Shown here one piece after another: positions 2,494-40,878 of a stretch of 64,000 nucleotides of DNA (its first letter is position 1; each line of letters begins with the position of its first letter). The position numbers were made by a program, and so were the translations under genes. The notes beneath the pieces were generated by a model. It was given only the letters and a program-made list of their open reading frames with translations. It searched no databases and was not told the origin of the DNA. Location: contig JBGSIC010000018.1 of NCBI GenBank assembly GCA_041751875.1, positions 32,723 through 96,722 of the forward strand, given 5' to 3'. The stretch comes from Bdellovibrionota bacterium. Its GTDB lineage: Bacteria > Bdellovibrionota > FAC87 > UBA2466 > JACKAF01.

Positions 2494-2653
2494 ACCTGAC
2501 CTCTATATACGCGGCACCTCGCACTAACCAAATGACAATCGTCTTCCGCACACCCTTCGGCGGTCTTATCGACGAGGTGAATTTGTGGAAGCGAGCCCTT
2601 ACGCCCCGCGGAAACAGCGGAGATTTTCACCAGTCCGACAAATCTTCCCTAAC

Positions 2654-3376
2654 TCAGCTGCCCAAGTGGCGGTCAATCACGCGCGAAAACTCAGCCGCAG
2701 GATAAGCTCCTTTTAGAGGCACACCATTTACAATAAAAGAAGGAGTGCCGCGGAAATCAAACTTCGTGGCCTCTGCCATGTCTTTGGCGATCTTATCCTT
2801 CACCTTCGGTGACGCGAGGTCTTTTTGGACTTGATCCATTTTCGCGCCGACCTTCTGTGCTTCCTGCTTTAAAAAACTTTCTCCCTCGGCAGTCAGCTTC
2901 GTTTGGCCTTCGAAAACCGCATCATGGAACTTCATCGCCTTTTCTTTGCTCTGAAGCGCGATGGCTTCGAAGTATTGAGCCGCGATCATGGCATGGGGGT
3001 GAAATTCGAGTGGCAGATGCTTTACCGTAACACGCAACTTGTTGCCGTATTTATCCATGAGTTCTTTCATGGTTCTGGCCCCGTTGGAGCAATAGGGGCA
3101 CTGGAAATCAGTGTACTCCACAATGGTGACTTTCGCGTTCGCAGGACCGCGAAAGCTTTGTTCGCCGCTGAGATCGGGTTTTAAGGGGTTCTTGAAATAG
3201 GTTTCGCGCTCTTCTTCCATCGCGATTTGGCGGCGTCGTTCGAGCTCCTGTTGCGCCTTAAACTGTTCGAGCAAGTTGTTTTGGGCGTCCAACGCATTTT
3301 TCTTTTTGTCTCCCGTGCATCCGCTTAAGAGAGCGAGAAAAATTACCCATGCGACTGCGCTTCCAAAACTTTTCAT
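2654..3376 (-). CDS. DsbA-family thiol:disulfide oxidoreductase lipoprotein
   Basis: Thioredoxin-fold motif FQCPYC and lipobox LLSGC. ATG at 3376 is preceded by AGGGGA, whereas the track start at 3397 is TTG. Confidence 0.7.
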   Translation of the reverse strand: MKSFGSAVAWVIFLALLSGCTGDKKKNALDAQNNLLEQFKAQQELERRRQIAMEEERETYFKNPLKPDLSGEQSFRGPANAKVTIVEYTDFQCPYCSNGARTMKELMDKYGNKLRVTVKHLPLEFHPHAMIAAQYFEAIALQSKEKAMKFHDAVFEGQTKLTAEGESFLKQEAQKVGAKMDQVQKDLASPKVKDKIAKDMAEATKFDFRGTPSFIVNGVPLKGAYPAAEFSRVIDRHLGS

Positions 3377-3668
3377 GAATTCCCCTTGAAGGTTCAACCT
3401 ACGAACGATTCATCGTACCCAAGCCAGCAGGGCCAAGCAAGAAGCGCTCGTAATGCGAAGCGTTAGGCGCCTTCGGATTTCGCGGAAAAGTATGCTATAG
3501 TATCGCCTTTAGAGCTAAGTCATTGGTTTGCTTGTTGATCACATTCTGCGCTGCCGAGCCTCTACTCATAGAAGCTATTCCGGCTGTTGAAAATTCTGCT
3601 GACGGTGAACCTCCGTCTGCCCTGGCTACATCACCGCACCCAAATTGCTTTTCTTATACTGAGGCCCC

Positions 3669-4943: not shown

Positions 4944-5941
4944 TTCGAAATGATTTTGGGCTGCTTTCGCAGCAAATACACAAAAGCCGGAACAATCAGA
5001 CAAGACCCTACCGCAAGCGCAATGAGCATTTGTTTTAGCGTCGCAGCAGGCGCGGCCAACTCGTAAAACGTGTAGGGCCTATCGGTCATAAACAACAAGA
5101 CCGGGAACTGCGCGCAAAACCAACCCGCTAAAATAAAAAAGATCTGCATTCCCGCCAGGACTCGCAAGTGCCAAGCGCGACGTTGTTTGAGAAAGAGCCA
5201 TAGCGGTACGAGGGTAAGAGACGCTAGCGCGAAGCAAACAATACTCCACGGTTCTGTGAAGAAACGATGGACCAAGACGATACCCGAGTACTCCCCGACC
5301 AGGAAAATAGCGCCACCGAGGACAATAGCCACTAGATTTGCGTAACGCGCTTGTTTTACACAGAGGCCTCTTAATTTCTCATTCTCTGTTTCGCCAACCA
5401 AGTAGACTGCTGCCAAGAAAGTAAAAAGCGCGCAAAGGAAAAAGCCCACCAAGAAAGAAAAGAGATTGAGCCAGTTTGCGATGTAGCCTTCAAAAAAAGA
5501 ACTCGGGCTGGGTTCAATTTGTCCACGAATGAGACCAGCTGCGACGACGCCCAAGAAAAAGGGGGTAAGTAAACTTGCCACTTCAAATGCCCGCCAATAG
5601 TAGCTGCCGTAATCCGGGAAAGCGTCGTAGTGCCGAAAAGTAAAAGAGCAACCCCGGAAAATAATGCCAAGAAGCATCAGCGTGAGTGGCACATGAAACG
5701 TGATACTCATCTGCGCGTAAGCTTTGGGAAAGGCGGTAAACAGGATGACGATGGCGAGGATGAGCCACACGTGATTGGCTTCCCAAACCGGCCCCATGAC
5801 TTTGGTGACGAGCTTTCGCTGGGCACTTTTGAGTTCAGACGGGGTGAAGAGGCTTAGAATGCCGGCACCGAAATCTGCCCCACCAAAAAGGCAGTACAAG
5901 CACAGCGCAAGGAGCAGAATGATCAAAATCGTTTCAACCAT
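4940..5941 (-). CDS. cydB: cytochrome bd ubiquinol oxidase subunit II
   Basis: 333-aa polytopic protein beginning MVETILIILLLALCLYCLFGGADFGAGIL (CydB signature). Overlaps cydA by 8 nt in operon arrangement. Confidence 0.85.
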   Translation of the reverse strand: MVETILIILLLALCLYCLFGGADFGAGILSLFTPSELKSAQRKLVTKVMGPVWEANHVWLILAIVILFTAFPKAYAQMSITFHVPLTLMLLGIIFRGCSFTFRHYDAFPDYGSYYWRAFEVASLLTPFFLGVVAAGLIRGQIEPSPSSFFEGYIANWLNLFSFLVGFFLCALFTFLAAVYLVGETENEKLRGLCVKQARYANLVAIVLGGAIFLVGEYSGIVLVHRFFTEPWSIVCFALASLTLVPLWLFLKQRRAWHLRVLAGMQIFFILAGWFCAQFPVLLFMTDRPYTFYELAAPAATLKQMLIALAVGSCLIVPAFVYLLRKQPKIISN

Positions 5942-7214
5942 GCTGCGGCTCTTTTTCTAGTGCTTGAATTTGGCGAACCAGGAGCCAGGAAACCAGCACC
6001 CAAAGAAACAGGTAGAGCAAAGTGAACAGTAAAAAAGGCACTTGAAGGCCGGGCATGGGAGTCAGAGCATCCTTGGTGCGCATGATGCCATAAATGATCC
6101 AAGGCTGTCTTCCGACTTCCGTCACGATCCAGCCCAGTTCTGTAGCGATAAAGCCCAGAGGAATGGACAAAACAAAAAGTTTTCGTAGAAACGTCTGTCG
6201 GGATAGGTCGAAATTGTTCCGGAACCGTAAGAAGAAATAGAGAAGGCCTAGAAAAGCCAGCCACATTCCCAACAGAATCATTCCCTGGAAACTAAAGTGC
6301 ACGATGCCAATGGGAGGCCGATTTTCCTTCGGAAAGGCCTCGTATCCTTTTACTTCGGCGTCAAATCGACCATAAGCGAGGAAACTCAAAAGTCCCGGTA
6401 TCTGAACGGGCCCCAGAGTGAGAGGTGCATGCGTTTGGGTTTGCGCGAGTCCCTCCATTGCTGCGAGTTTGAGCGGCTGATATCGGGCCACTTCTTTGGC
6501 CGCAAAATCCCCGGTAAGAGGCTGAATCAAAGCGGCTACGCCACCGAACACGAGAGCAATGCGTACCGCCTTTTCATGAAAGCTCTTTAGGTGCGGTTGC
6601 TTAATAAGAAGCCACGCATGAATCCCCGCGACGGCGAAACCGGTGGCCTCAAAGGCGGCTACGACCATATGAATTCCCTGATGAAGCGCGGAGGGATTAA
6701 ACATCGCTTTAATGGGATCAATTTCAGTGAATTGACCGTTCGCCCAAACAAACCCGGTAGGGGTGTTCATCCAGCCGTTTGCGCAAATGACAAAGAATGC
6801 CGACATGACGCCGGAAATACCGACGACAAGCCCGCATACCCAGTGTGCTTTCTCTGGCAAGCGATCCCAGCCGTAGAGAAAAAGCCCCAGCGCAATGGCC
6901 TCCAGAAAAAAGGCCGTTCCTTCCCAGGAGAAGGGCATACCAATCAAGGGGCCGGCGTGTTCCATAAAGGTAGGCCAGAGAAGGCCTAGTTCGAAGGAAA
7001 GGGCCGTTCCGGAAACCGCTCCGGTGGCAAAAAAGATAGCGACACCTTTTGCCCAGCTCTGAGTGAGTTTTTTGTACTGCGGATCGCGCGTTTTAAGCCA
7101 GCGGGCGTGCGCTACGGCCATCAGAAAGGGCATCGCAATACCGATCGAAGCAAAGATGATGTGGAAGCCCAAAGAGACTGCCATTTGCGTTCGGGCGGCG
7201 AGAAGGTCCGTCAT
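5934..7214 (-). CDS. cydA: cytochrome bd ubiquinol oxidase subunit I
   Basis: N-terminus MTDLLAARTQMAVSLGFHIIFASIGIAMPFLMAV parallels E. coli CydA [28 protein letters not shown]. Contains the conserved GRQPW Q-loop motif. ATG at 7214 is preferred over the upstream GTG at 7472 of the track ORF. Confidence 0.85.
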   Translation of the reverse strand: MTDLLAARTQMAVSLGFHIIFASIGIAMPFLMAVAHARWLKTRDPQYKKLTQSWAKGVAIFFATGAVSGTALSFELGLLWPTFMEHAGPLIGMPFSWEGTAFFLEAIALGLFLYGWDRLPEKAHWVCGLVVGISGVMSAFFVICANGWMNTPTGFVWANGQFTEIDPIKAMFNPSALHQGIHMVVAAFEATGFAVAGIHAWLLIKQPHLKSFHEKAVRIALVFGGVAALIQPLTGDFAAKEVARYQPLKLAAMEGLAQTQTHAPLTLGPVQIPGLLSFLAYGRFDAEVKGYEAFPKENRPPIGIVHFSFQGMILLGMWLAFLGLLYFFLRFRNNFDLSRQTFLRKLFVLSIPLGFIATELGWIVTEVGRQPWIIYGIMRTKDALTPMPGLQVPFLLFTLLYLFLWVLVSWLLVRQIQALEKEPQHG

Positions 7215-7437
7215 GCCCGCAGCATAGTACAAGCAAACTAATAGAGAAAGGAGAGAAAGGTGCCCATCTACTTCCCGGCCGGATAAGTTGCGTATACTTT
7301 TAGGACGCCCGCTACCTTTAGCCTGCGGCTCGTCTCGCTCTGACTGACCACGCCGATAAAGCGTAGTTGTTCGCGAGGTTCCGGCAGGGAAGTAGGTGGG
7401 TTCCCTTGCAGGGGGATTTGGCATTTTTGGAGATGAA

Positions 7438-7905
7438 ATGAAATATTGGTTAATGAAATCTGAGCCGACCACGTTTTCTTACGATGACCTTTTGAAAGCG
7501 CCGAAAAAGACTACTGCTTGGGAAGGCGTGAGAAACTACCAAGCCCGAAATCTCATGCGCGATGAACTGAAAAAGGGGGACCAGGTCCTTTTTTATCACA
7601 GCAACTGCGATGAGCCCTCCGTGATGGGAACGGCGGAAGTGGTGAAAGAAGCTTACCCGGATCCTTTCGCATGGGACGCAAAGAGCAAGTACTACGACTC
7701 AGACGCAAAAAAGAAAGGCACCAATCCCTGGGTGCTCGTTGAAATAAAGGCGAAAACAAAGTTCGAGCGACCGGTCACCCGCCATATGCTCAAAGCGGAA
7801 AAGGCATTGGCGAAAATGATGGTGCTTAAAAAGGGATCGCGTCTTTCGGTACAGCCAGTGACCGAGGCGGAATTCGAGGCTGTTTTGAAGCTAGGAAGGG
7901 CCTGA
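7438..7905 (+). CDS. EVE (PUA-like) domain protein
   Basis: MKYWLMKSEPTTFSYDDL...VLFYHSN matches the EVE/thymocyte-nuclear-protein-like family pattern. ATG at 7438 is in frame within track ORF 7396..7905. Confidence 0.7.
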   Translation: MKYWLMKSEPTTFSYDDLLKAPKKTTAWEGVRNYQARNLMRDELKKGDQVLFYHSNCDEPSVMGTAEVVKEAYPDPFAWDAKSKYYDSDAKKKGTNPWVLVEIKAKTKFERPVTRHMLKAEKALAKMMVLKKGSRLSVQPVTEAEFEAVLKLGRA

Positions 7906-8022
7906 GTGCCCTCATTGTAAGTCATTGAAATAATAATGTATTACAAGTCGAGCGTGCTGCGATTTTGTGTTTAGAGCGCGTCGTGTTAAAACGTAGCCCG
8001 ATTTATTAACCCAAGAAAACAA

Positions 8023-9264
8023 ATGTCACCTTTTGAAATTCGAAACAACGAATACCACTGCGAAGGCGTGCCTCTTTCCAAAATTGCTCGCGAGCAGGGA
8101 ACCCCTGTTTATGTCTACTCGCGCACGGCACTGGCGGAACGCTGCAACCTGATAAAAGAAGCTTTTAAGGGGCGCGACTTTTTGCCTTGTTACGCTGTTA
8201 AAGCGAACTGCAACTTATCTGTTTTGCGCGAAATTGCTTTGCACGGTTTTGGGGCGGATGTCGTCTCCGTGGGGGAAATGGAACGCGCACTGAACGCGGG
8301 TATTCCCGCTTCCCAGGTTGTGTTTTCTGGAGTGGGGAAAACCGCGAGTGAAATTGAACGCGCTCTACACGCGGGTATTTTGTCTTTCAATGTCGAGTCG
8401 GTGGAAGAACTAAAGCAAATTGGCAAGCTTGCTCAAAAGTTAAAAAAACGCGCGCCCATAGCGTTTCGGGTAAACCCCAATGTTGATGCGCAGACCAATC
8501 CTTACATTGCCACCGGGCTCTACTCCACAAAGTTTGGGATTGCGGTCGAGGATGTGGACGCTTTTCTCGACGTCATTAGAAGCTATGAGGAACTCGAGCT
8601 GGTGGGGCTTTCTTGTCACATCGGCAGTCAAATCACCGGTCTGGGGCCCTTCCGTGAAGCGGCGGCAAGTATGCGCGAGCTTTGCGAACAAGTTCAGGCC
8701 AAAGGTTTTAAGTTGAAGTTTTTGGATATGGGAGGCGGCCTGGGCATTCGTTACGACCAAGAAGAGCCACCCAGCATGGCGGCCTACGCTGAAGCGCTTC
8801 TCTCCGAAGTGGGTGACTTGGGTTTAAAGATTCTCATCGAACCCGGTCGTTCTATCGTCGGTAATATCGGTGTGTTGGTGACAGAAGTGCAGTACATTAA
8901 AACGACTCCGGCCAAAACCTTTGTGATCGTGGACGCGGCGATGAATGATTTGTTGCGCCCCAGTCTATATAAGTCCTTTCACGGAATTGAACCGGTGAAA
9001 GCTGTGAAAAATGCGGCCACCGAGACAGTCGATGTCGTGGGTCCTATTTGCGAGAGCAGTGATTTCTTGGCCAAGGATCGCCCGCTTCCTGCCGTAGTTT
9101 CCGGAGACCTTTTGATGGTCCGTTCTTGCGGTGCTTACGCCTCTTCGATGGCGTCAAATTACAACTCCCGGCCTCGCGCTCCCGAAGTGCTCGTGACCGG
9201 GGAGGACTACCGAGTCGTCCGCACACGCGAACATATTTCTGATCTGTGGAAGCGGGAGATCTAG
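8023..9264 (+). CDS. lysA: diaminopimelate decarboxylase
   Basis: 413 aa, fold-type III PLP decarboxylase. The YAVKAN motif and EPGRSIVGN match LysA signatures. Confidence 0.9.
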   Translation: MSPFEIRNNEYHCEGVPLSKIAREQGTPVYVYSRTALAERCNLIKEAFKGRDFLPCYAVKANCNLSVLREIALHGFGADVVSVGEMERALNAGIPASQVVFSGVGKTASEIERALHAGILSFNVESVEELKQIGKLAQKLKKRAPIAFRVNPNVDAQTNPYIATGLYSTKFGIAVEDVDAFLDVIRSYEELELVGLSCHIGSQITGLGPFREAAASMRELCEQVQAKGFKLKFLDMGGGLGIRYDQEEPPSMAAYAEALLSEVGDLGLKILIEPGRSIVGNIGVLVTEVQYIKTTPAKTFVIVDAAMNDLLRPSLYKSFHGIEPVKAVKNAATETVDVVGPICESSDFLAKDRPLPAVVSGDLLMVRSCGAYASSMASNYNSRPRAPEVLVTGEDYRVVRTREHISDLWKREI

Positions 9265-9275
9265 TGTTTCCGGGA

Positions 9276-10526
9276 ATGACAAAAGAATCTGTTGTGGTGC
9301 AGAAATATGGCGGGACTTCCGTGGGGAGTGTCGAGCGTATCCAGAAAATCGCCAAACGCGTCGCTGAACAACACAGAGAAGGGTTTACGAAGATTGCTGT
9401 CGTGGTAAGCGCGATGGCGGGAGAAACCAACCGCGTCGTGGAACTTGTGCATCAGGTAAATCCGCGCGCCTCGGCGACACACTACGATTTGGCGGTAGCA
9501 ACCGGTGAGCAAGTTAGTAGCGCGCTCATGGCTGCTGCCTTGGAAGCCGAGGGTGTCGGCGCGCAAGCTTTTTTGCCTTATCAAATTGGACTTTTGACAG
9601 ATGGCTTACACGCTCAAGCCCGCGTCCGCTCGATTGAAACGGAAAAGATTGAGGCCTGCTGGCGCGACGGAAAGATTCCGGTTGTTCCCGGTTTTCAGGG
9701 GATTAACGAGGAGAATGAGGTCACAACTCTCGGACGGGGAGGAAGTGACATAAGCGCGGTCGCCCTTGCTGTGGTTCTCAAGGCCCATTTTTGCGAGATC
9801 AATACCGATGTGGATGGCGTGTACACCGCCGATCCTCGGGTGGTGAAAACCGCTCGTTTAGTTGAAGTTTTGGATTACGAGACGGCTCTGGAGATGGCGG
9901 CACTGGGAAGTAAGGTGCTCCACAGCCGCTGTGTGGAGCTCGGAGCGAAATATCAGATGCCCATCGTAGTGCGAAACAGCCATGGTGGGGACGAAGGTGA
10001 AGAAAGGAAGACCGTGATTATGAATTACAGTGCGCAGTCTGCGTTGGAGGCTCCGGTAGTCTCGGCAGTCAGTTTGGATACCAACGTCGCGAAGATCTCA
10101 CTCACGGGCATGAGCAAGCACACGCGGGCTATCTCGGGCGTGTTTGAAGCGGTCGCCAAGGCCGGCATCAACGTGGATATTATCGTGCAAAATCTCCTCG
10201 CCAATAAGACCACGATGCGAGTGGGGTTCACCATTCTAGAAAATGACTTGAGCCGAGCGCTTGAAGTGATCGAATCGCTGCGCCAAAAGGAAGAATACAA
10301 AGGAATGCACGCCAGCAGCCGCACGGATTTAGCAAAAGTCTCGGTGGTAGGGTTAGCGATGCGATCGTACGCGGGTGTGGCGAGCCGTGTTTTTGAGACG
10401 CTTGCGCAAAAGGGGATTGATATCTTGATGATCTCCACTTCAGAGATCAAGATTTCGTGCGTAGTTCCGCAAGACATGGGGAAACTTGCCGCGCAAGCAC
10501 TCCACGAAGCCTTCTTAGAACAATAA
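9276..10526 (+). CDS. lysC: aspartate kinase
   Basis: VVVQKYGGTSVGSVERI amino-acid kinase N-terminus followed by tandem ACT-type C-terminal domains. ATG at 9276 lies just after the lysA stop. Confidence 0.9.
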   Translation: MTKESVVVQKYGGTSVGSVERIQKIAKRVAEQHREGFTKIAVVVSAMAGETNRVVELVHQVNPRASATHYDLAVATGEQVSSALMAAALEAEGVGAQAFLPYQIGLLTDGLHAQARVRSIETEKIEACWRDGKIPVVPGFQGINEENEVTTLGRGGSDISAVALAVVLKAHFCEINTDVDGVYTADPRVVKTARLVEVLDYETALEMAALGSKVLHSRCVELGAKYQMPIVVRNSHGGDEGEERKTVIMNYSAQSALEAPVVSAVSLDTNVAKISLTGMSKHTRAISGVFEAVAKAGINVDIIVQNLLANKTTMRVGFTILENDLSRALEVIESLRQKEEYKGMHASSRTDLAKVSVVGLAMRSYAGVASRVFETLAQKGIDILMISTSEIKISCVVPQDMGKLAAQALHEAFLEQ

Positions 10527-16015: not shown

Positions 16016-16966
16016 CTAGCGCTGGGAGGATACTTTGCGCTGAATTTGGAGTTTTTTGAAGATGCTCGATTTGGAATCGAGAAAACCGCGGTGCTTTTCA
16101 AAGTAGCGTTCAAACACGATTCGAAGCGCTTCCCCTTCTTCCCAAAGAGTCGGTTGGCCCTCGGGGTTTTCGAGCGCGAGAAAGCGCGGAATACTTTCGT
16201 GAGAATAGTTTTTCGGATGAGGAAAAAGTTCCTTTAGAATCTCTCCGTCAAAGAGCTGTTGCTTGGGATCGTCTATCATGATCGAATGAAGGGTGAAATT
16301 GTTGTCGGGGTACTGTTTGACGTAAGTCTCCAAAAGCGCTCGGTACTCTAGGCAGCTTTCACACCAGCTTGCCGATATAATAAAAAAATGAAACGTGCGT
16401 TTGTTGTCTTTGGGAATAAAGGATTTCACAAAGCGGAGTTGTTTGAAGTTTTCCTGAATCTCTGTCGACTTGAGCTTTAAAATCTCATTAATTTTGATTC
16501 TGTCGGTGAGAGAAATTCCGTCGAATGCCCGACGCGAAATAGGTATCTTGTGTGAAATCAAGCTCGCGCTGATGACCTTCGTCTCGTTGAGAGGGGCTCC
16601 ACTGGTGAGAAAGAGAGAGCGCCGTTTCCAGGTCTCTCTAATTTGGTCCCACTCTTGGTTGATCGTTTCAATTTCTTGCGCCTCGACCAAACGTTTAGAA
16701 ATGCCTTTCTCATCTTTGTCTACGAAAGGAAGGATCTCGTTTACGTCATTTCCTTCCCGGAAGTACAAACTGAAAGGTAGATAATACAGTCGGAACATGT
16801 AGAGCAGTTTGTTCGTCGGAGGGGGAGCAGCCACGGGTTTCTGGGCTATGGCCGAACTTGCCAAAAAAAGGATTGCGAATGCAGTCCAGATCCTTGCCCA
16901 GGACGCAGCTTTGCGCTCAACGGTTAAAGTGGCGAAATGTTTGCCGAAGTGGCTTGAGCGAAACAT
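16016..16966 (-). CDS. thioredoxin-fold (TlpA/redoxin-like) periplasmic protein
   Basis: WCESC CxxC motif. Signal peptide from Met at 16966 (MFRSSHFGKHF...AILFLASSAIAQ). Same strand as, and upstream of, the DUF72 gene. Confidence 0.5.
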   Translation of the reverse strand: MFRSSHFGKHFATLTVERKAASWARIWTAFAILFLASSAIAQKPVAAPPPTNKLLYMFRLYYLPFSLYFREGNDVNEILPFVDKDEKGISKRLVEAQEIETINQEWDQIRETWKRRSLFLTSGAPLNETKVISASLISHKIPISRRAFDGISLTDRIKINEILKLKSTEIQENFKQLRFVKSFIPKDNKRTFHFFIISASWCESCLEYRALLETYVKQYPDNNFTLHSIMIDDPKQQLFDGEILKELFPHPKNYSHESIPRFLALENPEGQPTLWEEGEALRIVFERYFEKHRGFLDSKSSIFKKLQIQRKVSSQR

Positions 16967-17075
16967 GCGTGGTCCTTCACGTATATTTCGGCTGGATGCG
17001 TCAAAAAGTTTAAGAAAATCCGAAGCAAAGAGGCAGAGTTTTGCCATCCTCCAACCTGTCGGAGATACTGACTAG

Positions 17076-18131
17076 GTGCAGAGCCCAAGTGACGTCGCCG
17101 TAGTTCTTTCTCCTCGTTTTCTGGAACACCAGTCCCAGGAAACTCATCCTGAATGCCCGGAACGTATCCAGGCGGTATTGGACCTTTTTCAAGAACGTCC
17201 CGACTTGGCGGCTTTACCGCGCGTAGGGTTACGTCCGGCGAAATCTTCTGAAGTGACCCTCTTTCATTCTGCGGAAATGTTGAGCGAGCTAGAGAAAAAG
17301 AAAGGCCACAAAGGGTGGTTTGATTCGGATACCTTTTTCGGTAGCGAAAGTATCGACACCGCTTTTTTCGCAGCCGGTAGCACCGTCGAATTGGCTCAAC
17401 AAATTTGGAATAAACAATTTCGTCGCGGCTTTTCTCTCGTACGCCCTCCTGGGCATCATGCGGTGGCGGGACACCCGATGGGATTTTGTCTTTTGAATAA
17501 CGTAGCACTGGCGGCGAAAGCAATTCTACAGAACGCGCCTCAGGCCAGGCTGGCTATCGTCGACTATGATCTGCATCATGGCAACGGTACACAAGACGCA
17601 TTTTGGGAATCCGACCAAGTGCTCTTTGTTTCCTCGCATCGCTTTCCGTACTATCCGGGAACGGGGCGACTCGACGAAGTGGGGGGGCAAAAAGGGAAAG
17701 GGACCACCGTTAATTTTCCGCTGGCCCTTTCGTATGAGGATCCTCTTTTCAGAGCGCTCTACGAGCGGCTGGTTACTCCGATCGTACGCGCTTTTAAGCC
17801 CGATATGATTTTGGTTTCCGCGGGCTTTGATGGACACACACTTGATCCGATGCAGGGCATGAGAATGAGCACAGAGCTTTATGGGTGGTTTGCCGAAATG
17901 TTGATGAACCTCGCTGAGGAAACGGCAGAAGGTCGCATCCTTTTTTGTTTGGAGGGTGGCTATCATCCAGGGGTGCTGAAGAAAAGCGTGGAGGTAACCT
18001 TGGACCAAATGGTTCGCCAACCTCGCCAGAAAAATGAAATGGGTCTAGACGAGAAGAACGCTTTCGATTTACTGGATACATTTTACTGGGGCCTCAAGGC
18101 CTTCTATCCTGAACTCATCAGCCCAAACTAA
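17076..18131 (+). CDS. histone deacetylase-family (AcuC/arginase-deacetylase superfamily) protein
   Basis: Conserved HDAC motifs: PPGHHA, DYDLHHGNGTQ, and the GFDGH region. Confidence 0.8.
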   Translation: MQSPSDVAVVLSPRFLEHQSQETHPECPERIQAVLDLFQERPDLAALPRVGLRPAKSSEVTLFHSAEMLSELEKKKGHKGWFDSDTFFGSESIDTAFFAAGSTVELAQQIWNKQFRRGFSLVRPPGHHAVAGHPMGFCLLNNVALAAKAILQNAPQARLAIVDYDLHHGNGTQDAFWESDQVLFVSSHRFPYYPGTGRLDEVGGQKGKGTTVNFPLALSYEDPLFRALYERLVTPIVRAFKPDMILVSAGFDGHTLDPMQGMRMSTELYGWFAEMLMNLAEETAEGRILFCLEGGYHPGVLKKSVEVTLDQMVRQPRQKNEMGLDEKNAFDLLDTFYWGLKAFYPELISPN

Positions 18132-18147: not shown

Positions 18148-19734
18148 CTACTCTGTGGGGGTCAAGAGTTCGCCCGCTTCTTGAAGATCGGCGGCTGCCT
18201 TTTCTCGACCGCGTTCCGCGGATTGACGGGCCAGAGTATCAATTAAACCTTGCGTGCCCGAACCATCTTCACCAAAGAACCGCTCTTCGAGAGCCGCATC
18301 GCGTGTGAAACCACCTGGTAATTCCTGTGCGGCTTTGAGTGCCTTGGCCCAAAACGCGCGATAGATATCGACGTCAAGACGACCTTTTTCCGTATAGCGG
18401 TCGGGGTGCTCGGCTGCCTGCGCGCGTATATCTTTTTCGGCATCGGCGTAAGCTTGACGGGCAAGTCGGCGGTGTTCGGGATTAAGGAAATCAAAAGGGA
18501 AGGGGGCGTTCATTTCGTCGCCATATTCATCTCGTAAACCCTGCCACTGCTGGACCATCATAAAAAGAAGGTCGTCGCCCGCTGAGGTGACCACTGGTAA
18601 CTGATTGCGAAGCGCGGCTTCCTGATCTTGGTCTATGAGCTCGTTCTGTTCTTGTTCGGCCCGTTCGCCCTGCGCCTGCATATTGAGCTGCTGCTGCATG
18701 AAATAAACGCCAAACGGGGTGCCGAAAAGCACGACGAGTAGACGCGCGGACTTCATGGTGCGCCCGGTGATACGTGATAAGTTCTTTAAGGGCAACCAGG
18801 CGCGGTTTAATAAACCCGGTTTTGTCCACGGGCCTAAGTCGTGAGGGACGGTAGCTCGGCGCAAGCGACGTCCCGCTGATTCCGGCATGTCGTCGATAGC
18901 TAGAGGACCGTTGATTAATGCGGCGGCTTGATCGCGTTCCGAATGCAAACTCTGTGAGTACCGCTCGGCTCGGCTTAAAAGTTGCTCCAAATTTTCTAGC
19001 TTGAGACTGCCGGAACTGGGATCGATAGCAAGGGACTGCAAAGCTTCCGCAGGCACGTGGGCTAAGCCCATTTGTTTAAGGGCTTGGGCGAGTTTCTCGG
19101 CCTTCGCATCGCGGTTGGTTACGTGAGTGCGAAGCTTGTTCTGCAAACCCTCAAGGTACTGATCTTTAACAAAGGGAATGCCGTTGCCGTCCTGGCGCGA
19201 ATGATCCAAAGCGTTGTCTGGAAGCGCGGGGGGAGTACCCGCTTTGCGTAATTTCTTGAGCTGCTTGGCGAACGCAGGAGCCTGCCCTTTTGCCCATTCC
19301 TTAAACTGTTCTTCGGGCATCGCTAAAATTGCTTTCTCGTGCTCACGTAACGTTTCTTCGAAATCCTTTACTTCCGCTTCGTAAGCCTTCATTTGGGGCA
19401 AGCGAGTGGCGGCATCCAGATGTTGATAACGTTGGGTGAGGGCCTTTTTATTGCCTCGTCCTAGTCGGTAGGCAAGATAAACACCGGCCGTAGAAACTGC
19501 CGTCACCGATCCATACAACAAGGGATCGTTCCAGTGGTCGGAACCGAAATTGGTTGTCTCCATCGCGGTCTTCGCGACTTCCCCGGCGGATTGAGCTTTT
19601 TCTCCCATCCAGGAAAGGGCTTGTCCGCAGAATTCCGTAAAGCCATTGGCGTGGGCGGGCGAAGGAAAGACGATTGAGAAAACTAGCAGAATCTGAACAA
19701 TCCAAAGATTCAATTTTGCAAAAATCGATTTCAC
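18148..19734 (-). CDS. secreted hypothetical protein (528 aa), no recognizable domain
   Basis: Signal peptide MKSIFAKLNLWIVQILLVFSIVFPSPAHA. Charged/coiled-coil-like central region and one internal hydrophobic segment (LLVVLFGTPFGVYF). Confidence 0.5.
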   Translation of the reverse strand: MKSIFAKLNLWIVQILLVFSIVFPSPAHANGFTEFCGQALSWMGEKAQSAGEVAKTAMETTNFGSDHWNDPLLYGSVTAVSTAGVYLAYRLGRGNKKALTQRYQHLDAATRLPQMKAYEAEVKDFEETLREHEKAILAMPEEQFKEWAKGQAPAFAKQLKKLRKAGTPPALPDNALDHSRQDGNGIPFVKDQYLEGLQNKLRTHVTNRDAKAEKLAQALKQMGLAHVPAEALQSLAIDPSSGSLKLENLEQLLSRAERYSQSLHSERDQAAALINGPLAIDDMPESAGRRLRRATVPHDLGPWTKPGLLNRAWLPLKNLSRITGRTMKSARLLVVLFGTPFGVYFMQQQLNMQAQGERAEQEQNELIDQDQEAALRNQLPVVTSAGDDLLFMMVQQWQGLRDEYGDEMNAPFPFDFLNPEHRRLARQAYADAEKDIRAQAAEHPDRYTEKGRLDVDIYRAFWAKALKAAQELPGGFTRDAALEERFFGEDGSGTQGLIDTLARQSAERGREKAAADLQEAGELLTPTE

Positions 19735-19750
19735 GCGCTCTCCGCCGGGC

Positions 19751-19774
19751 GCTCACTGTATACAAGCAGTGAGC
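19751..19774. promoter_or_regulatory. palindrome GCTCACTG-tatacaa-GCAGTGAGC in divergent control region
   Basis: 8-bp perfect inverted repeat immediately upstream of the 528-aa gene start (19734). Possible operator or leader hairpin. Confidence 0.3.
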
Positions 19775-20143
19775 AGGTCACACTATGCCCTCACTCCTAT
19801 AACCAACATTCGTGCCAGGGGGAACGGGAATATTCCACCGTGATGTTGAGCGTTTTCGCTTGTTTTTCGAACCGGCGGCGCATTTTTGTCGGGCAGCTGG
19901 AAAAAGGGTCGACGGGGGCGTATTCCGTAAAGATACTAAGCGCGCCTCTCCCAACCGCACCAAGCCCCGATTCCGCAATAGATTGGGCACCTTCTCGTCT
20001 TTGCGTAGCCATTGCGTCTACGTTGCTTACACCCTTCAAAAACTCCCTATTGCTCCACCGCTAAGGCCCGAAATTAATTGGTTTTACAGATGCGATTTAC
20101 CCTCTATCTTGGCGCAGAGCTTGCTCTGTAAAGAGGAACAGCT

Positions 20144-23100
20144 TTGAGCCAACGACCGGGGGGCGGTACGCATCTCTTAATAAAAAGCATTCTGGGTCTC
20201 GCTCTTGTCAGCGCGTTTGCGGTTTTCGCGGACGAAGAGGGGTCCACTTTTCCCATCCAAAATGGGTACATGCGCCTTCAAGCGCATGCGCAAGCGGGTC
20301 GACTTCCTCCGAGCGAACTATTGCGCTATCTGAACTGGGGAGGAACTTCCACTTTCAACCGCCTTTTCGAAATCTACCAGTCGGAATTCTTTCGCCCATG
20401 GAGCAACAAGGAGGAGCGCAAGCGCCTTGAGGCTTTCTTGACCGAACAAGCCATTGCGTGGAGAGCTAGCGGTAGTGATGCTGCGGAACTCGGTTTCAAT
20501 CCGCTGGAGAGGCTCTCCGCTGATATTAGACGTTTTGTTCGCGAACAGTCTGTCGATCTCGATAAGCCGATGGGGTTTCACCGCGCAGAAGCACTAGCCC
20601 GCTCAACTGTCTCGACACGACTCTTGCGGTCCGAACGAGACAAACAGATTCGAAAACTCGCTCTGCAATTAGAAGATGAAGTCGATCCCCTGGCCCGCCA
20701 ACAACTAGCGGTTCCCCTAACGGATCGCTTTGGGCCATGGATCAAGGAAACGATGGGTGAAATTGCAGAAGAGAGTATGCGCCACCATCTGCGCTTGCGT
20801 CGCGCGGCCGCACAGGTCGATCCCGATTTAAAGTTCATGTTAGTCCCGGCTGCCGCTGATCTGAATTCGTTGGAAGGAGGGATAGAAATCTCTCCGGACG
20901 AACTCTTGCGGCTAGCCCCGGTCTATAGTCGCGAGGAGAAGTTTCCCATCGGATTAGCCATGCGATTTCGCGATCCCGCTAGAGACGGGGATTTTCGTTT
21001 GGTGGCGAGTCACCCGCGTTTGCAACCGCAGATGGTAAGCCATTTCAATGTAGCTGCTGATGAAACCCTTGCGGCGCTGATGCGTCTTCACACCTTTACA
21101 GACCCAGAAAAAGCCAAGGCGCTTTTTGCGATTCGTACGCAAGCGGATCACGCGAGCGGTCTTTTGTCGGGGACTTTTTCAGCGTGGGGGAGAGGGAGTT
21201 CGCCTGCCGAAGTATTAAAACACTTAGAGGCGAAAAAGTTTTCGTACGAGTCCATGATTTCCTATTTCGGAGATCGCGAGCGCGTACACGATCTGGTGCT
21301 TGCGCAAGTACTGCACGAGCCGCAAAAATGGCAGAAGCGGTATGAATTTTTAAAGCGTTACGGCGCGCTGGGCTCATCTGCGTTGAAGGGACTTAAGGCT
21401 GCAGCCAGCTCCGGAATGGCAGTCGTTCACTACTCTCACGCTCTGGTCGATGAAATGCGGAATTGGCCGGCCGATCTCAAGAGTTTCGCCCACTCGATAA
21501 AAAACAATGTTGATGTTCAGGCGATAAAATTTGGCGATGTACGGGCGAATAACTCTGGGTATTTGGCCAATTTCTTTCGCCGTTTATTTGGGCGCGTGCC
21601 GGCCGGTGTGGCCGCGCAGCCGGCGGTTCAGTCCAGAGGGGAAAGAGTCCAAAGTCCCAATGGAATGGTAGAAGGGGCAAAGCGTGTGGCGAGAGACGTT
21701 GCGATGGCGGTGGCCGGTGCGGGCGTTCTTTCTGGGGTGGCCATCGGCGCTCATGAGCTCGGTCTTCTCGACGACATCAGTTGGGATTTCTTTAAGGGCG
21801 CCGTAGAGGAATCATTTCGTACGCGTTCGCTTGCTTCCGATATGGGGGACCGTTTGGTTGAGCCCAGTAAGGGGTTTTTGGCCTCAGCGATGAAATGGCC
21901 AGCCTTCGCTGGCGTCGCTCTTGTTGCGGCGGCAACACCCGCGCTCTTGAAAAAAATGGGTAAAAGCGCCCGCGCGCAAGTGGAAGAATCAGACCGGCCG
22001 GTCGATGCACTTTTTACCTACCGACCGGCCGAAGGAGGTCAGATGCCCGCGGGTTTGGAAATTCCCATGAGGACGGATTTGACCTTTGGCGACAGCGAAG
22101 TACGCACGATACCGACTGAGGCGGCGGACGAAAACGTGGGTTTAGTCCATTCTCGGCGTCCGGTTGTGTCGCTGGCAGACGGGATGGTCCCCATTGCGCG
22201 TCCGCTGGGCCAAGCTCTTATCGGGCTTAGAGTCACAGATGCCAATCACCGAAGCCTTAAGCAAGGAAGCGATTTCGAAGTGGTTTATCGCCCCGAGAGA
22301 GATGCTTATTTTATTCGTTTGCTAAACCCAGAAATCGGCTCGGTTCATTATCGTGCGGAAGTGGAAGAAACTCCGAGTGGCTCCCATCGTTTAGACGTAC
22401 GCGGCACTTTGGCCTTAGATGATGTAGACGCGCAGAAAGCTTTGAAGGAGGCAATCGAAAGCTCGGGCTTTGACCGTTTGGGGCGACAAATGGGCCAGCG
22501 CATGACAAGGGGAGCTCTCGCCACAACAGGCGACTTGGAAGCCCTTTTATCGCAGAGTAACTCGTATCCGCTCATGAAAGGGGAAAGTCTTCCCGATTTA
22601 CCGACGGATGATGTCGGTAAGTATGAAAAGTTTCAAGTAGGCGGTTGCCTGAATGGTAATTGCACCGTGAGTAACGGCTTTGGTGCCTCCGCGCTAAACG
22701 CGCTTTTACAAGCGCAGGATCCGGAACTGCGTGCTGAAGTGCGAACGACTCTTCCCCTTCACCAGGATGGACGAGCCTTGGAAGGGCACGTGCGCACCTA
22801 TGTATACCGAGGAGACCAACTCGTAGACGTGCTGGACTTTACTTCCAGCAACATCCGGTACGGGGATATTTTCCGTCACATCATGCGCCGGATCACAGGA
22901 CGTCTTCCCAAGCCCCAGGAAAAAGCGAGCGCACCACCGGCGGACAAGAATGCGGTATTTTTCAACTGGGCGCGCACAGAAGGCAAATCTCTCTTAAAAG
23001 CGTTAGCCGATGATCGAAAGTTTTTGGAGGACCAACTTAAACGCCATCGCGTGAGCGATCAGTCTGATCCGTCCAAGCGTCTCTATGCGCTTCATAATTT

Positions 23101-23443
23101 AATGGAGGCCGTACTCGATCCCCACCAGAAGATCGAAGAAGTCGTTGAGCGTGTGGGAAGGCACGTTTCGTTGCCGGATGGGGAAACCGATCGCTACGCT
23201 TTATTCGACGCTATTTCGGCAGCCATTGAAAGGGAAGGTAAGCAAATTGACAAACTTTACGTTGAAAATCCCGGCAGAAATGATTTTGGTACACGTCGCC
23301 GGCACTTTAACCGTGTGAGCTTAGATCCAGTCGAGAAAGTAGCCCCGATGCAAGATGTGGCCCGCGCGATGGCGAGCACAAACGGACAACTCAGCCGAGG
23401 CGTGAAACGCTGCCGAGAAGCCCTAGCGAGTGTCGCTGATTAA
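20144..23443 (+). CDS. large secreted/membrane-associated hypothetical protein (1099 aa) with possible C-terminal transglutaminase-like Cys-His-Asp core
   Basis: TTG start with an AAGAGGAA SD. Signal peptide. Two central hydrophobic helices. C-terminal segment ...GNCTVSNGFGASALNALL...(about 45 aa)...GHVRTYVYRGDQLVDVLDFT resembles the C / HxW-EVY / D-x-T spacing of the transglutaminase-like cysteine-peptidase core. Confidence 0.5.
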   Translation: MSQRPGGGTHLLIKSILGLALVSAFAVFADEEGSTFPIQNGYMRLQAHAQAGRLPPSELLRYLNWGGTSTFNRLFEIYQSEFFRPWSNKEERKRLEAFLTEQAIAWRASGSDAAELGFNPLERLSADIRRFVREQSVDLDKPMGFHRAEALARSTVSTRLLRSERDKQIRKLALQLEDEVDPLARQQLAVPLTDRFGPWIKETMGEIAEESMRHHLRLRRAAAQVDPDLKFMLVPAAADLNSLEGGIEISPDELLRLAPVYSREEKFPIGLAMRFRDPARDGDFRLVASHPRLQPQMVSHFNVAADETLAALMRLHTFTDPEKAKALFAIRTQADHASGLLSGTFSAWGRGSSPAEVLKHLEAKKFSYESMISYFGDRERVHDLVLAQVLHEPQKWQKRYEFLKRYGALGSSALKGLKAAASSGMAVVHYSHALVDEMRNWPADLKSFAHSIKNNVDVQAIKFGDVRANNSGYLANFFRRLFGRVPAGVAAQPAVQSRGERVQSPNGMVEGAKRVARDVAMAVAGAGVLSGVAIGAHELGLLDDISWDFFKGAVEESFRTRSLASDMGDRLVEPSKGFLASAMKWPAFAGVALVAAATPALLKKMGKSARAQVEESDRPVDALFTYRPAEGGQMPAGLEIPMRTDLTFGDSEVRTIPTEAADENVGLVHSRRPVVSLADGMVPIARPLGQALIGLRVTDANHRSLKQGSDFEVVYRPERDAYFIRLLNPEIGSVHYRAEVEETPSGSHRLDVRGTLALDDVDAQKALKEAIESSGFDRLGRQMGQRMTRGALATTGDLEALLSQSNSYPLMKGESLPDLPTDDVGKYEKFQVGGCLNGNCTVSNGFGASALNALLQAQDPELRAEVRTTLPLHQDGRALEGHVRTYVYRGDQLVDVLDFTSSNIRYGDIFRHIMRRITGRLPKPQEKASAPPADKNAVFFNWARTEGKSLLKALADDRKFLEDQLKRHRVSDQSDPSKRLYALHNLMEAVLDPHQKIEEVVERVGRHVSLPDGETDRYALFDAISAAIEREGKQIDKLYVENPGRNDFGTRRRHFNRVSLDPVEKVAPMQDVARAMASTNGQLSRGVKRCREALASVAD

Positions 23444-26079
23444 GCAGCCCCTGAAGCTTCGAGATCCTGTTGCGGGCGCGATTGAGACCGTTTCGCGTTG
23501 CCTGTCCATGCTGAGTAAATGGCTTCCTCAGAAATCTGTTCCGGATGCACCAAAGAAATGACAGCCTGCTGAGGTTGCAGATATTTTTGGGCGACTCGCA
23601 GAATGGTTTCCGCGGTGACTTCCTGGATTTTCTTCGGGTATTCAAGAGAGTGTAAATGTCCGTAACCGTAAGTCTCATCCAAACCATAGAGCATAGCTTG
23701 GGAAGAATTGCGCTGCAGGTCTAGTTCGAAACGTCCCACGAGGTATTGCTTAGCGCGCGCGAGTTCTTTGGCACTCATCGGCTTATTTAGCACCTTGTCT
23801 AGTTCAGCGCGTATACCCGTAATGGATCGCTGCCATTTTTCGGGCGAAGTCCCAATATAAAATGCAAAGGTCCCCCGTTCGATGCTTTCGCTTTCCATGG
23901 GCGCTACCGTGTAGGCGAGACTCTGCTTGTCGCGCAACTCGAGGAACAGTCGTCCCCCTTGGCCCGACAAACAAGAAGACAACACCCGCAGAGCAAAACG
24001 GTCTTCATCATTTAACGTCGTGCCCAAAAAACCAATCAGCGCGTGCGCCTGAAAGAGGGGCGTTTTCACGGCCGAGCGGATACGAATTTGAGAAGGCGCA
24101 GAAATGTCCGCTGCTGGTAGGCTGGCTTTTCCCCGAGGACGCAAGGGCGCGACCAGGGACTGCAATTCTTCCATCCAGTCCTGGGGAGCAAAAGCCCCTA
24201 CCGTCGAAATCACGAGGCGTTCCTTATGAATGTAGTCGCGGTACCACTGTTTGAGCACGTCGGTGCTTAGTCCACCCACGGCTTCTTTCGTTCCAATCGA
24301 CGGGAAACCAAAACGATGGTTTTCGTACATAGCCGAAAGGAAATTGAGCTGGCACATCTGGCCGGGAGAGTCATTGATCGACTCAATCTCGCGCAGCGTG
24401 ATGTCCCTTTGGGTCTTAAATTCTTCTTCCGGAAAGGTCGGATTATAAAGGATATCCGACAAGATGGGCTTAATCCGGTTCCAGTGGTGAGAAACAAAAT
24501 CCACGCTGAGTCCGCAGGTGTTTTTTCCCGCAAACGCGCCGACCGAAGCGCCGAGAGATTCCAAAATTTTGGCCATCGCTAGCGAGGTATAATTCTGTGT
24601 GCCGGAAGTCCACAAAGTAGAGAACAGACTGGAAATCCCCAGATTGTGAGTTTGCTCTTCACGCGACCCGCCGCCTAAAAAGATAAAACGAAGCGAGGTG
24701 AGTGGCAGAGTGTTGTTACGTTTCCAGATAAACGAGCATTTCTCGACCACCTTTTTCTGAGGGGGATCCAAAGTGACACGGCTCTTGGTGACCTGAACCT
24801 TGGGAAGCTTGATGGCACCCCACAGTTGTTTCTTATCCAACTCGAATTTTTGTGGGTGCACAATGGATACAACGGGCTTGGCTTTCATGAGTGCCTGAAA
24901 AGCTAGCTGTACATCTGCGCCTGTGCACTCTGAAATCATTTCAAGGTAAGTTTTCTCAAATTCTGGGTCCTTGAAGTGCAGGTTGTAGTATCCGAGACGG
25001 CGAGCATAGCCCTCGACAGTTTGCTTGCCGTAAAAAATTTCTGATTCCATGCCGCTTTTCACTCTGTCGAGTTCTTCGGCATGTAAGCCCTCGGCTGCCA
25101 CTTCCGCGAGAATTTTCATCATCTCTGCGACAGCTTCATAAAGTTTATCGGGAGCGGTGAGTAGGCTAAGGGTCGCAACGCCGCAACGATCGGTGGCAAC
25201 GATCCCCATATCGGCGTCCATGGCGAGGCGCGTTTCTTTCACCAGTCGTTGATAAAAACGGCTGCTTTCCCCTTGTCCAACCGCGGTGGCCAGAAGGTCC
25301 AGAGCGGCGACGCTGGGGTCACGGAGCGCAGGACTGCGAAAGCCAATTTGCAAATGGCACTCTTGTACGTCACGGGCAAGGGTGGCCATCGGCTGCCCAC
25401 TGAGAGAGGCAAGGCTGAGAGGCTTTTCTTTAGCTTTCGACTTAGGCGCCTTCCTTACCTTTGCAAACTTCTTTTCCGCAAGTTCGTAGGCTTCTTGCGG
25501 GTCAATGTCGCCTACCAAAAAGAGAGAAAAGGTTCCCGCGTGGTAATTTTCTTGGAAATACTTTTTGAGTGTCGCAGCCGAAAAGCCGCCGACTGTTTTT
25601 TCAAAGCCGAGCACCGGGCGGCCGTAGGGGGTTCCCGGAAAGGTCTTTGCCCATAGGTTGGTGAAAACCATTTTGGACGGAGAATCATAGGCACGCTTGA
25701 TTTCTTCCAAAATCACTTCGCGTTCCCGATCCATTTCCACGCGATCAAAGGTGGCGTTCTGAACGGCGTCGGCGATTACGTCTAGACCGTTCTCAAAAAA
25801 GCGACTTGCGAGCGTGGTGTAGTACACGGTTTCTTCGAATGAGGTGTAGGCGTTGACTTCGCCTCCCCAGGTTTCGATATCCAGAGCAATCTGGCCGACT
25901 TTGCGTTTCTTGGTGCCCTTGAAAAGGGCGTGTTCAATAAAATGGGAAATCCCGGCCAAAGGGGCGGGCTCATGCGCACTTCCGCGGGCGACCCAGGCCT
26001 GGATGCTCACCACCGGAGCGTTGTGCATCTCCACAACAAAAAGTGGTATTCCGCTCTTGAGAGTGTATGTTTTGACCAT
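23440..26079 (-). CDS. M16-family zinc metallopeptidase (tandem insulinase/pitrilysin-like halves)
   Basis: Inverted zinc motif HFIEHALF in the N-terminal half. 879 aa consistent with two M16 domains. Confidence 0.85.
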   Translation of the reverse strand: MVKTYTLKSGIPLFVVEMHNAPVVSIQAWVARGSAHEPAPLAGISHFIEHALFKGTKKRKVGQIALDIETWGGEVNAYTSFEETVYYTTLASRFFENGLDVIADAVQNATFDRVEMDREREVILEEIKRAYDSPSKMVFTNLWAKTFPGTPYGRPVLGFEKTVGGFSAATLKKYFQENYHAGTFSLFLVGDIDPQEAYELAEKKFAKVRKAPKSKAKEKPLSLASLSGQPMATLARDVQECHLQIGFRSPALRDPSVAALDLLATAVGQGESSRFYQRLVKETRLAMDADMGIVATDRCGVATLSLLTAPDKLYEAVAEMMKILAEVAAEGLHAEELDRVKSGMESEIFYGKQTVEGYARRLGYYNLHFKDPEFEKTYLEMISECTGADVQLAFQALMKAKPVVSIVHPQKFELDKKQLWGAIKLPKVQVTKSRVTLDPPQKKVVEKCSFIWKRNNTLPLTSLRFIFLGGGSREEQTHNLGISSLFSTLWTSGTQNYTSLAMAKILESLGASVGAFAGKNTCGLSVDFVSHHWNRIKPILSDILYNPTFPEEEFKTQRDITLREIESINDSPGQMCQLNFLSAMYENHRFGFPSIGTKEAVGGLSTDVLKQWYRDYIHKERLVISTVGAFAPQDWMEELQSLVAPLRPRGKASLPAADISAPSQIRIRSAVKTPLFQAHALIGFLGTTLNDEDRFALRVLSSCLSGQGGRLFLELRDKQSLAYTVAPMESESIERGTFAFYIGTSPEKWQRSITGIRAELDKVLNKPMSAKELARAKQYLVGRFELDLQRNSSQAMLYGLDETYGYGHLHSLEYPKKIQEVTAETILRVAQKYLQPQQAVISLVHPEQISEEAIYSAWTGNAKRSQSRPQQDLEASGAA

Positions 26080-40852: not shown

Positions 40853-40856
40853 GTTC

Positions 40857-40878
40857 TAAAACGTGCCAGGCACCTTTT
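40857..40878. terminator. weak bidirectional terminator hairpin AAAA-CGTGCC-A-GGCACC-TTTT between convergent genes
   Basis: 5-bp GC stem flanked by an A-run and a T-run. The sequence is related to the intergenic repeat family. Confidence 0.3.

Follow-up and report, generated by a model that had tools for sequence, protein, structure and literature searches.

We consider two divergently transcribed genes of a Bdellovibrionota bacterium, which lie head to head in a stretch of 64,000 nucleotides (GenBank assembly GCA_041751875.1, contig JBGSIC010000018.1, positions 32,723 to 96,722 of the forward strand). This whole stretch is called the window, and positions in it are counted from its first letter. 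One of the two genes encodes an exported protein of 528 amino acids (aa) and the other an exported protein of 1099 aa. The most likely reading of the pair, to which we assign a probability of about 0.4 from the comparison of sequences and gene order, is a functional partnership in the cell envelope between the 528-aa protein and a large partner that varies from lineage to lineage. The evidence that carries this reading is positional: every known member of the 528-aa family has a head-to-head neighbour that is exported, measures at least 1,099 aa, matches no Pfam domain and contains a pair of hydrophobic helices. In such a partnership, the two proteins would act together in the cell envelope, with the 528-aa family serving as a conserved structural partner or anchor and the giant protein as the lineage-variable partner. 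The 528-aa protein itself could be periplasmic or secreted or, should its marginal helices insert, an inner-membrane protein of N-out/C-out topology.

If the pairing reflects a real partnership, it would add a new module of the envelope in a Bdellovibrio-like lineage that has been poorly sampled. A conserved small partner beside a non-homologous giant one would also give a way into the large set of exported proteins in these bacteria that await characterisation. Taken overall, this is an ordinary finding of modest interest.

The two genes

The 528-aa gene (18148 to 19734, minus strand) starts with GTG and the 1099-aa gene (20144 to 23443, plus strand) starts with TTG. Both are found in the list of open reading frames (ORFs) and are backed by codon usage and by the hydropathy of their products; the 528-aa gene is backed in addition by two homologs (P0003 and P0004, described below) and by an AlphaFold2 (AF2) model that is all helical. 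Each start codon is the most upstream one possible and is preceded by a good Shine-Dalgarno sequence, as read from the sequence: GGAG at 19740 to 19743 (minus strand), 5 nt before the GTG, and AGAGGA at 20132 to 20137 (plus strand), 6 nt before the TTG. The divergent genes are separated by an intergenic region (19735 to 20143) of 409 bp, which, with a GC content of 0.528, is not AT-rich. The divergent layout, the length of the gap and the TTG start are all located in the ORF list as an earlier note on this DNA had described them.

The codon score per codon is 0.26 for the 528-aa gene and 0.19 for the 1099-aa gene, compared with 0.21 +/- 0.07 for 41 reference ORFs, and the off-frame scores are about -0.45; both genes are frame-specific and native over their whole length. 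The GC content at third codon positions (0.55 and 0.54, respectively) agrees with the value of 0.55 for the references, and no compositional island is found. Because their codon usage is frame-specific and native, both ORFs are real genes; they are genuine, native and monocistronic, and they are transcribed divergently.

Signal peptides were judged by inspection and hydropathy, with a basic N-region, a hydrophobic core and a small-x-small motif as the features of interest. Both window proteins have cleavable-looking Sec signal peptides of the signal peptidase I (SPase I) type. In the 528-aa protein, for which a signal peptide had been claimed and is indeed seen, the N-terminus is the signal-peptide-like MKSIFAKLNLWIVQILLVFSIVFPSPAHA with cleavage before N (AHA/N, where the slash marks the cut). 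In the 1099-aa protein, the signal-peptide-like segment ends in SILGLALVSAFAVFA and is followed by cleavage before DEE (VFA/DEE).

The 528-aa protein and its small family

Family searches were made against Pfam-A and NCBIfam with their curated cut-offs, and also against PADLOC, PHROGs and the sequences of the Protein Data Bank (PDB). Nothing significant is found in any of these for the 528-aa or the 1099-aa protein, in keeping with the earlier statement that no family can be recognised. The best matches below threshold are ATG17_like, which scores 12.8 bits (E = 0.08) where the cut-off is 43, and TssR_C (E = 0.09), and no weak family match is common to more than one member of the family that we describe here. 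The window pair matches no anti-phage defence profile in PADLOC and no phage profile in PHROGs. Word-indexed searches of 5.8 billion clusters with both proteins return self matches only, and the same holds for the profile of the family alignment (A1, the 528-aa protein with P0003 and P0004).

An exhaustive phmmer search of 1.84 billion representatives with the 528-aa protein as query returns exactly two homologs. These are P0003 (568 aa, E = 5e-28), which is MCB0416120.1 from the metagenome-assembled genome (MAG) GCA_020435265.1 labelled Bdellovibrionales, and P0004 (727 aa, E = 5e-23), which comes from the Logan assembly ERR15087766. The 528-aa protein is a member of a very small all-alpha family with three known members. 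The word "orphan", which the earlier note applied to this protein, is right in so far as no curated family contains it and wrong in that it has two full-length distant homologs. Having no recognisable family is not the same as having no homologs, and here the three-member family surfaced only by exhaustive search.

The alignment A1 runs over the full length of the proteins and contains about 70 invariant columns, both weak helices included. The identity of P0003 and P0004 to the 528-aa protein is 26% overall and 31-35% in the C-terminal domain, tblastn covers residues 63-507 of the 528-aa protein, and the two homologs are about 37% identical to each other. Both extend beyond the 528-aa protein at the C-terminus by a coiled-coil tail of about 50 aa, and an insert of roughly 130-150 aa is found in P0004 alone. 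The cleavage sites of the homologs (ALA/Q and AVA/Q) correspond to AHA/N in the 528-aa protein. Downstream, the family motif W-[NE]-[DE]-P-L-x-Y-G leads into a first weakly hydrophobic helix that ends in AY[RK], the helical middle contains F-[KD]-E-W-A-K, and the second weak helix is flanked by Arg with basic residues ahead of it. The conserved C-terminal helical domain (about residues 325-508 of the 528-aa protein) includes P-F-x-F-x-N-x-x-H and Y-R-x-F-W. No catalytic motif is apparent in the family.

An internal hydrophobic helix had been described in the 528-aa protein. It is present, but the alignment contains two such helices rather than one, at about residues 71-92 and 329-350; both are weakly hydrophobic and both are conserved. 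The charges that flank them could fit an N-out/C-out two-pass topology, and full passage through Sec fits equally.

Further searches leave the family at three. Metagenome scans with the A1 profile and with a profile of the C-terminal domain (A4) find no additional member, and neither scans of viral contigs nor tblastn against plasmid and phage collections give a match to the pair. A search for synteny among GTDB genomes by way of a neighbouring gene of the histone-deacetylase (HDAC) family finds a best match of 45% identity that is partial and a top-ranked, near full-length match of 39%, and no genome of a close relative. One Logan contig (L001) is identical to the window and adds no information. 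The small and large proteins are not paralogous to one another, and no paralogs of them are found elsewhere in the window.

The giant neighbours

The two other loci with family members were compared with the window. In the contig L018, the homolog P0003 (10001-11707, plus strand) faces a gene for a 1318-aa protein (5851-9807, minus strand) across a gap of 193 bp. In the contig L020, the 727-aa homolog (6623-8806, plus strand) faces a gene for a 1456-aa protein (1990-6360, minus strand) across a gap of 262 bp. Both arrangements are head to head, and neither large protein has a Pfam match. Each of the 1318-, 1456- and 1099-aa proteins begins with a signal peptide and contains two hydrophobic helices in its interior. 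Across all six proteins, three small and three large, the N-terminal hydrophobic segments reach Kyte-Doolittle values of 2.1-2.3 and end in cleavage sites of the AxA type. Among the roughly 80 genes of the three loci, only three are of 1,000 aa or more, and all three are these head-to-head partners.

The 1318- and 1456-aa proteins are 34% identical over their whole length (alignment A2). The flanking genes in L018 and L020 include Kinase-PPPase and 2-Hacid_dh genes. In the window, the pair is flanked by convergent housekeeping genes, the HDAC-family gene (17076-18131, plus strand) on the side of the 528-aa gene and a gene for an M16 peptidase (23440-26079, minus strand) on the side of the 1099-aa gene. 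Because L018 and L020 have their flanking genes in common, we count them as one lineage, and the window as a second. By our estimate, the chance that the family would stand next to a giant gene in a second independent lineage is about 1-3%. The recurrence of a giant exported neighbour in the head-to-head position points to a positional association. What is conserved is the position of the pair, not its sequence: the earlier expectation of a pair kept together in relatives is borne out for the layout, with a giant exported neighbour in both other loci, and fails for the 1099-aa protein itself, which is not co-conserved by BLASTP, hhalign or Smith-Waterman comparison. The large partner in the window is either non-homologous to the 1318- and 1456-aa proteins or abnormally diverged from them.

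In the 1099-aa protein, hydrophobic helices rich in Gly and Ala occupy residues 519-537 and 578-605, and there are just three cysteines (835, 840 and 1090). No homolog of it is found in the word-indexed clusters, by tblastn against plasmids and phages or in the viral scan, and no exhaustive profile search was made for it.

Two observations concern the cysteines. The top match of the hhalign comparison between the 1099-aa protein and A2, which is not significant, pairs a Cys-containing stretch (VGGCLNGNC..SNGF..S) with VG.GVCR[DN]G...C....[DN]F.PS; it lies at 22646-22663 in the window (residues 835-840), at about residues 433-457 of the L018 protein and at 493-524 of the L020 protein, and it holds two of the three cysteines of the 1099-aa protein. 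As a signal of homology we reject this stretch, which is not significant and which precedes the hydrophobic helices in one of the two architectures and follows them in the other. In the low-confidence model of the 1099-aa protein, a Cys and a helix are followed by His and Asp on successive predicted strands (residues about 830-900, C835/C840...H881...D897), an arrangement that we take to resemble the core of transglutaminase-like or papain-like cysteine proteases; membership in this group is not supported. The fragment has no Pfam match even at E = 10 and no match among PDB sequences, and the Foldseek matches are insignificant, with no protease or transglutaminase fold among them, from a model (pLDDT 37.8) that is too poor to exclude the idea.

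A separate observation concerns the annotation of the 1318-aa protein. Its cluster contains MEZ4751853.1 and MEZ4751854.1 from a Bdellovibrionota MAG, in which the annotation breaks a near-identical partner into pieces of 663 and 416 aa; such a split points to a frameshift, a pseudogene or an error of assembly.

The region between the genes

We turn our attention to the 409 bp between the two genes, which had been described as rich in palindromes. The most prominent element is a perfect inverted repeat, GCTCACTG-N8-CAGTGAGC, at 19751-19774, which ends 16 nt ahead of the GTG start and 7 nt ahead of its GGAG. The repeat is real as claimed, with a spacer of 8 nt instead of the 7 nt given for it. 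As minus-strand RNA it would form a stem of 9 bp with -13.6 kcal/mol, and this local hairpin (z = -2.9) is all that stands out in the folding of the region. As a whole, the region folds no better than its shuffles (z = +0.22 for the plus strand and -1.23 for the minus strand), and it gives no Rfam match with E below about 1. The repeat occurs once in the window, even when three mismatches are allowed. In the window, perfect 8-nt inverted repeats with spacers of 3-12 nt number 20 against 12.8 +/- 6.2 in Markov simulations, and in the intergenic region there are two 6-nt inverted repeats against 0.76 expected (p = 0.19). With the chance of its 8-nt repeat at about 5%, the region cannot be called palindrome-rich.

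The palindrome at 19751-19774 does not show the sequence features expected of a transcription-factor operator: it is not enriched, has no second copy in the window and is not conserved in L018 and L020. A reading of its core as a LexA box was rejected on inspection, since the spacing of CTG-N8-CAG is wrong for a box of the E. coli type; nor does the core match what we take to be the LexA box of Bdellovibrio. If functional, the repeat would be a putative stem-loop in the 5' untranslated region or a repressor operator, and it would serve the 528-aa gene only; it is placed between any plausible promoter and the Shine-Dalgarno sequence of that gene.

Other repeats in the region follow the same pattern. 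A perfect 10-nt palindrome, GGAATATTCC, lies at 19827-19836 with a related copy, GGGCGTATTCC, at 19916-19926; sites of this type at one mismatch or less number 3 against 1.9 expected, which is not above chance. The inverted repeat CAGAGC-tt-GCTCTG at 20115-20128 (plus strand), one of the two 6-nt repeats counted above, had been proposed as a leader hairpin before the 1099-aa gene. The sequence is present, at chance level, but does not act as such a hairpin. A loop of 2 nt is too short for an RNA hairpin to close, and in the minimum-free-energy fold of the leader the AGAG of the Shine-Dalgarno sequence instead base-pairs with CUCU (-11.9 kcal/mol, z = -1.07, not significant).

The 8-mer GGCACCTT at 19986-19993 (plus strand) was the basis for the claim of a stretch related to a repeat family near 19985. 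It is most likely a chance match to a repeat element that occurs elsewhere in the window. There are 6 copies of the 8-mer in the window against 2.4 expected, and 3 or 4 of them are within the genuine, hairpin-bearing element; the copy at 19986 shares with that element just the 8-mer and a few flanking bases, and the CACTTTCCG/CGGAAAGTG hairpin is missing. The element itself is about 85-90 nt long and is found just downstream of gene ends at 57290-57375 (plus strand), at 60925-61015 (minus strand) and, in part, at 40830-40900 (plus strand). It contains a 9-bp hairpin, CACTTTC[CG]G...C[CG]GAAAGTG, with one or two GGCACCTT(TTCC) units after it, and it looks like a REP-like or terminator-associated element.

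The two internal ORFs of the region, 19812-20147 (plus strand, 111 aa) and 19797-20039 (minus strand, 80 aa), have coding scores below those of every reference gene and no match in Pfam. A promoter-like site with 9 of 12 consensus positions is found at 19674-19701 (plus strand), inside the 5' end of the 528-aa gene and pointing the opposite way, and some 150 nt downstream of it, at 19847-19870 (plus strand) in the intergenic region, there is a hairpin with a T-run that resembles a terminator. Together they could bound a short antisense or divergent transcript across the ribosome-binding site of the 528-aa gene; both are of a kind that occurs at chance frequency. The motifs of the intergenic region are best read as ordinary, genome-specific sequence. 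As a matter of calibration, start-codon palindromes, 6-bp "hairpins" and 8-mer repeat matches are to be expected by chance in an intergenic region of 400 bp.

For transcription of the 1099-aa gene, a sigma70-like promoter candidate, TTTACA-16-TATCTT, is found at 20083-20110 (plus strand). It matches 9 of 12 consensus positions and predicts a start near 20117 and a leader of about 27 nt that contains the Shine-Dalgarno sequence. Sites of this quality number 6 in the scanned region against 3.0 +/- 2.0 expected, and the candidate is a consensus match only. A scan with the sigma28 pattern finds no credible site. In L020, two back-to-back sigma70-like promoters with 10 of 12 positions each stand at 6480-6540 between the genes for the 727-aa homolog and the 1456-aa partner, TTGAGA-16-TATAGT on the plus strand and TTGATA-16-TATACT on the minus strand, with their -35 boxes about 30 bp apart. 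This arrangement fits divergent transcription from one compact control region.

A comparison with the classical divergent gene pairs that have palindromic operators is natural. The likeness is in the head-to-head genes, in the common non-coding region with inverted repeats and in the back-to-back promoters of L020. Unlike in those systems, neither gene of the window encodes a regulator, the gap of 409 bp is long, and the palindrome lies beside one gene only, at chance level and without conservation.

Weighing the explanations

Several results weigh against a partnership of the two proteins, and we gather them here. The family is known from only two independent lineages. The 1099-aa protein has no similarity to the 1318- and 1456-aa proteins by BLASTP (E at least 0.34), by hhalign against A2 (probability 0.5%, E = 0.13) or by Smith-Waterman comparison with shuffles (z = 0.46 and -0.03, respectively). 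It is not a simple ortholog of them, because an ortholog that diverged at the relative rate of the 528-aa family should stay detectable over more than 1,000 aa. The structural models help little: AF2 gives residues 620-1099 of the 1099-aa protein with low confidence (pLDDT 37.8) and the 528-aa protein, from an alignment of three sequences, with a pLDDT of 49.8, in which only about residues 100-275 reach 65-87, and a Foldseek search of the PDB with the latter model finds generic helical bundles only. The internal helices of the 528-aa protein are marginal, with summed values on the biological scale of at least 6.2; two membrane proteins of the window that served as controls have values of -1.2 to 1.8 in their strongest helices, and the weaker helices of a multi-pass control protein with a VTT domain score like those of the 528-aa protein. 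About 30% of the scanned window proteins have no Pfam match, and adjacent orphans are not rare here. As for common regulation, the chance of finding at least one 8-nt inverted repeat in the 409-bp region is 0.05, and neither the palindrome at 19751-19774 nor anything similar is found in the intergenic regions of L018 and L020. The absence of the palindrome at these loci, where it had been expected to be kept, is weak evidence, because the loci are very distant and non-coding conservation is not expected at 26% protein identity.

Given these results, the most serious competitor is coincidence, in which two unrelated envelope genes, each specific to its lineage, are neighbours by accident, with no common regulation or function and with motifs that are all due to chance. 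We regard this as a real possibility, nearly as likely as the partnership. It accounts for intergenic motifs at or near chance level without excess folding, for a 1099-aa protein that is not co-conserved with the 528-aa family and for flanking genes that differ from those of L018 and L020; with so large a share of orphans among the scanned proteins, two adjacent ones are also less surprising. What coincidence does not account for is a giant, exported head-to-head neighbour without Pfam domains that recurs in both lineages with the family, where no other gene among the roughly 80 of the three loci reaches 1,000 aa. The idea of the earlier note, a pair of predation effectors, goes further than the partnership: both proteins would be secreted by a Bdellovibrio-like predator to act on the prey, with helices that insert in the prey membrane after Sec export, and a common control region would tie them to one predatory phase. 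Signal peptides on all six proteins would be expected of such effectors, as would internal helices in the 528-aa protein that are too weak to be clear stop-transfer anchors and a large partner that diverges fast or is replaced, as interface proteins are; the homolog P0003 also comes from a MAG labelled Bdellovibrionales. We consider the effector pair unlikely, since Pfam, NCBIfam, PADLOC, PHROGs, PDB sequences and Foldseek reveal no similarity to a known effector, toxin, pore-former or secretion signal, the strongly hydrophobic helices of the L018 and L020 large partners (1.9-2.9) resemble real inner-membrane anchors, and the predatory lifestyle of the source organism is only presumed. Going beyond the partnership in another direction, the 528-aa family could be the conserved half of a two-component module, unrecognised so far, that serves the envelope or the interaction with prey in Bdellovibrio-like bacteria; in it, the small protein would hold in place, deliver or gate a large and hypervariable cargo, and the giant partner would have been exchanged or have diverged beyond recognition with the layout kept; from the present comparisons this seems distinctly unlikely. 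Highly improbable, finally, is a cassette of conserved adaptor and variable cargo in the manner of polymorphic toxins or effectors, with the 528-aa family as a helper in export, anchoring or immunity and a giant neighbour that is swapped between lineages. Its appeal is that the position is conserved while the large partners are non-homologous and are all built from a signal peptide, a long soluble region and a hydrophobic helix pair. Against it, no domain typical of toxins, Rhs, PAAR, immunity or secretion systems and no match to a defence system is found, the genes are divergent and not operonic, their composition is native with no signs of mobile elements, and only two lineages are available.

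The remaining alternative concerns regulation, and takes the pair to be driven by divergent sigma54-dependent promoters. The -24/-12 consensus of sigma54 is TGGCAC-N5-TTGC, and two sites with one mismatch each are found in the intergenic region, each facing its own gene: TGGCACGAATGTTGG at 19803-19817 on the minus strand (read from 19817 to 19803, TTGG for TTGC), with a predicted start near 19791 for the 528-aa gene, and TGGCGCAGAGCTTGC at 20110-20124 on the plus strand, facing the 1099-aa gene and overlapping the repeat at 20115-20128. Both would be activated from common enhancer sites in the stretch of roughly 290 bp that separates them, and the supposed hairpin at 20115-20128 would be the -12 element. 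About 0.03 such sites are expected in this region, which is 0.6% of the length of the window and holds two of its six matches, and a perfect consensus elsewhere in the window (32791 to 32777, minus strand) suggests that the organism uses sigma54. We nevertheless hold this alternative to be improbable. The motif was seen post hoc and is not enriched in the window as a whole (6 matches at one mismatch or less against 4.5 expected). The minus-strand site reads GG-N10-GG and lacks the near-invariant C of the -12 GC. The plus-strand site has both GG and GC correct and is probably not a promoter, because its predicted start near 20136 falls inside the Shine-Dalgarno sequence of the 1099-aa gene and would cut it; the sigma70-like candidate at 20083-20110 appears to fit this gene better. 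The intergenic regions of L018 and L020 contain no sigma54-like sites and carry sigma70-like promoters instead, and no enhancer-binding protein is found among the 18 neighbouring window proteins that were scanned.

Other features of the window

The perfect sigma54 consensus mentioned above, TGGCACTGGCTTTGC at 32777-32791 (minus strand), lies 16 nt before the ATG of an ORF at 32321-32761 (minus strand). This ORF encodes a lipoprotein-like product of 146 aa (MALRLFILIALIVTTSGC...) and has no Shine-Dalgarno sequence, and the position of the site implies a putative sigma54-dependent transcript that would be nearly leaderless. Further sizeable ORFs without a Pfam domain are found at 1018-2493 (plus strand, 491 aa), 16016-17047 (minus strand, 343 aa), 36783-38465 (minus strand, 560 aa) and 47589-48881 (plus strand, 430 aa). 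The window also contains a 6S RNA (SsrS) at 44779-44954 (plus strand), which matches the Rfam family RF00013 over its full length with 82.9 bits.

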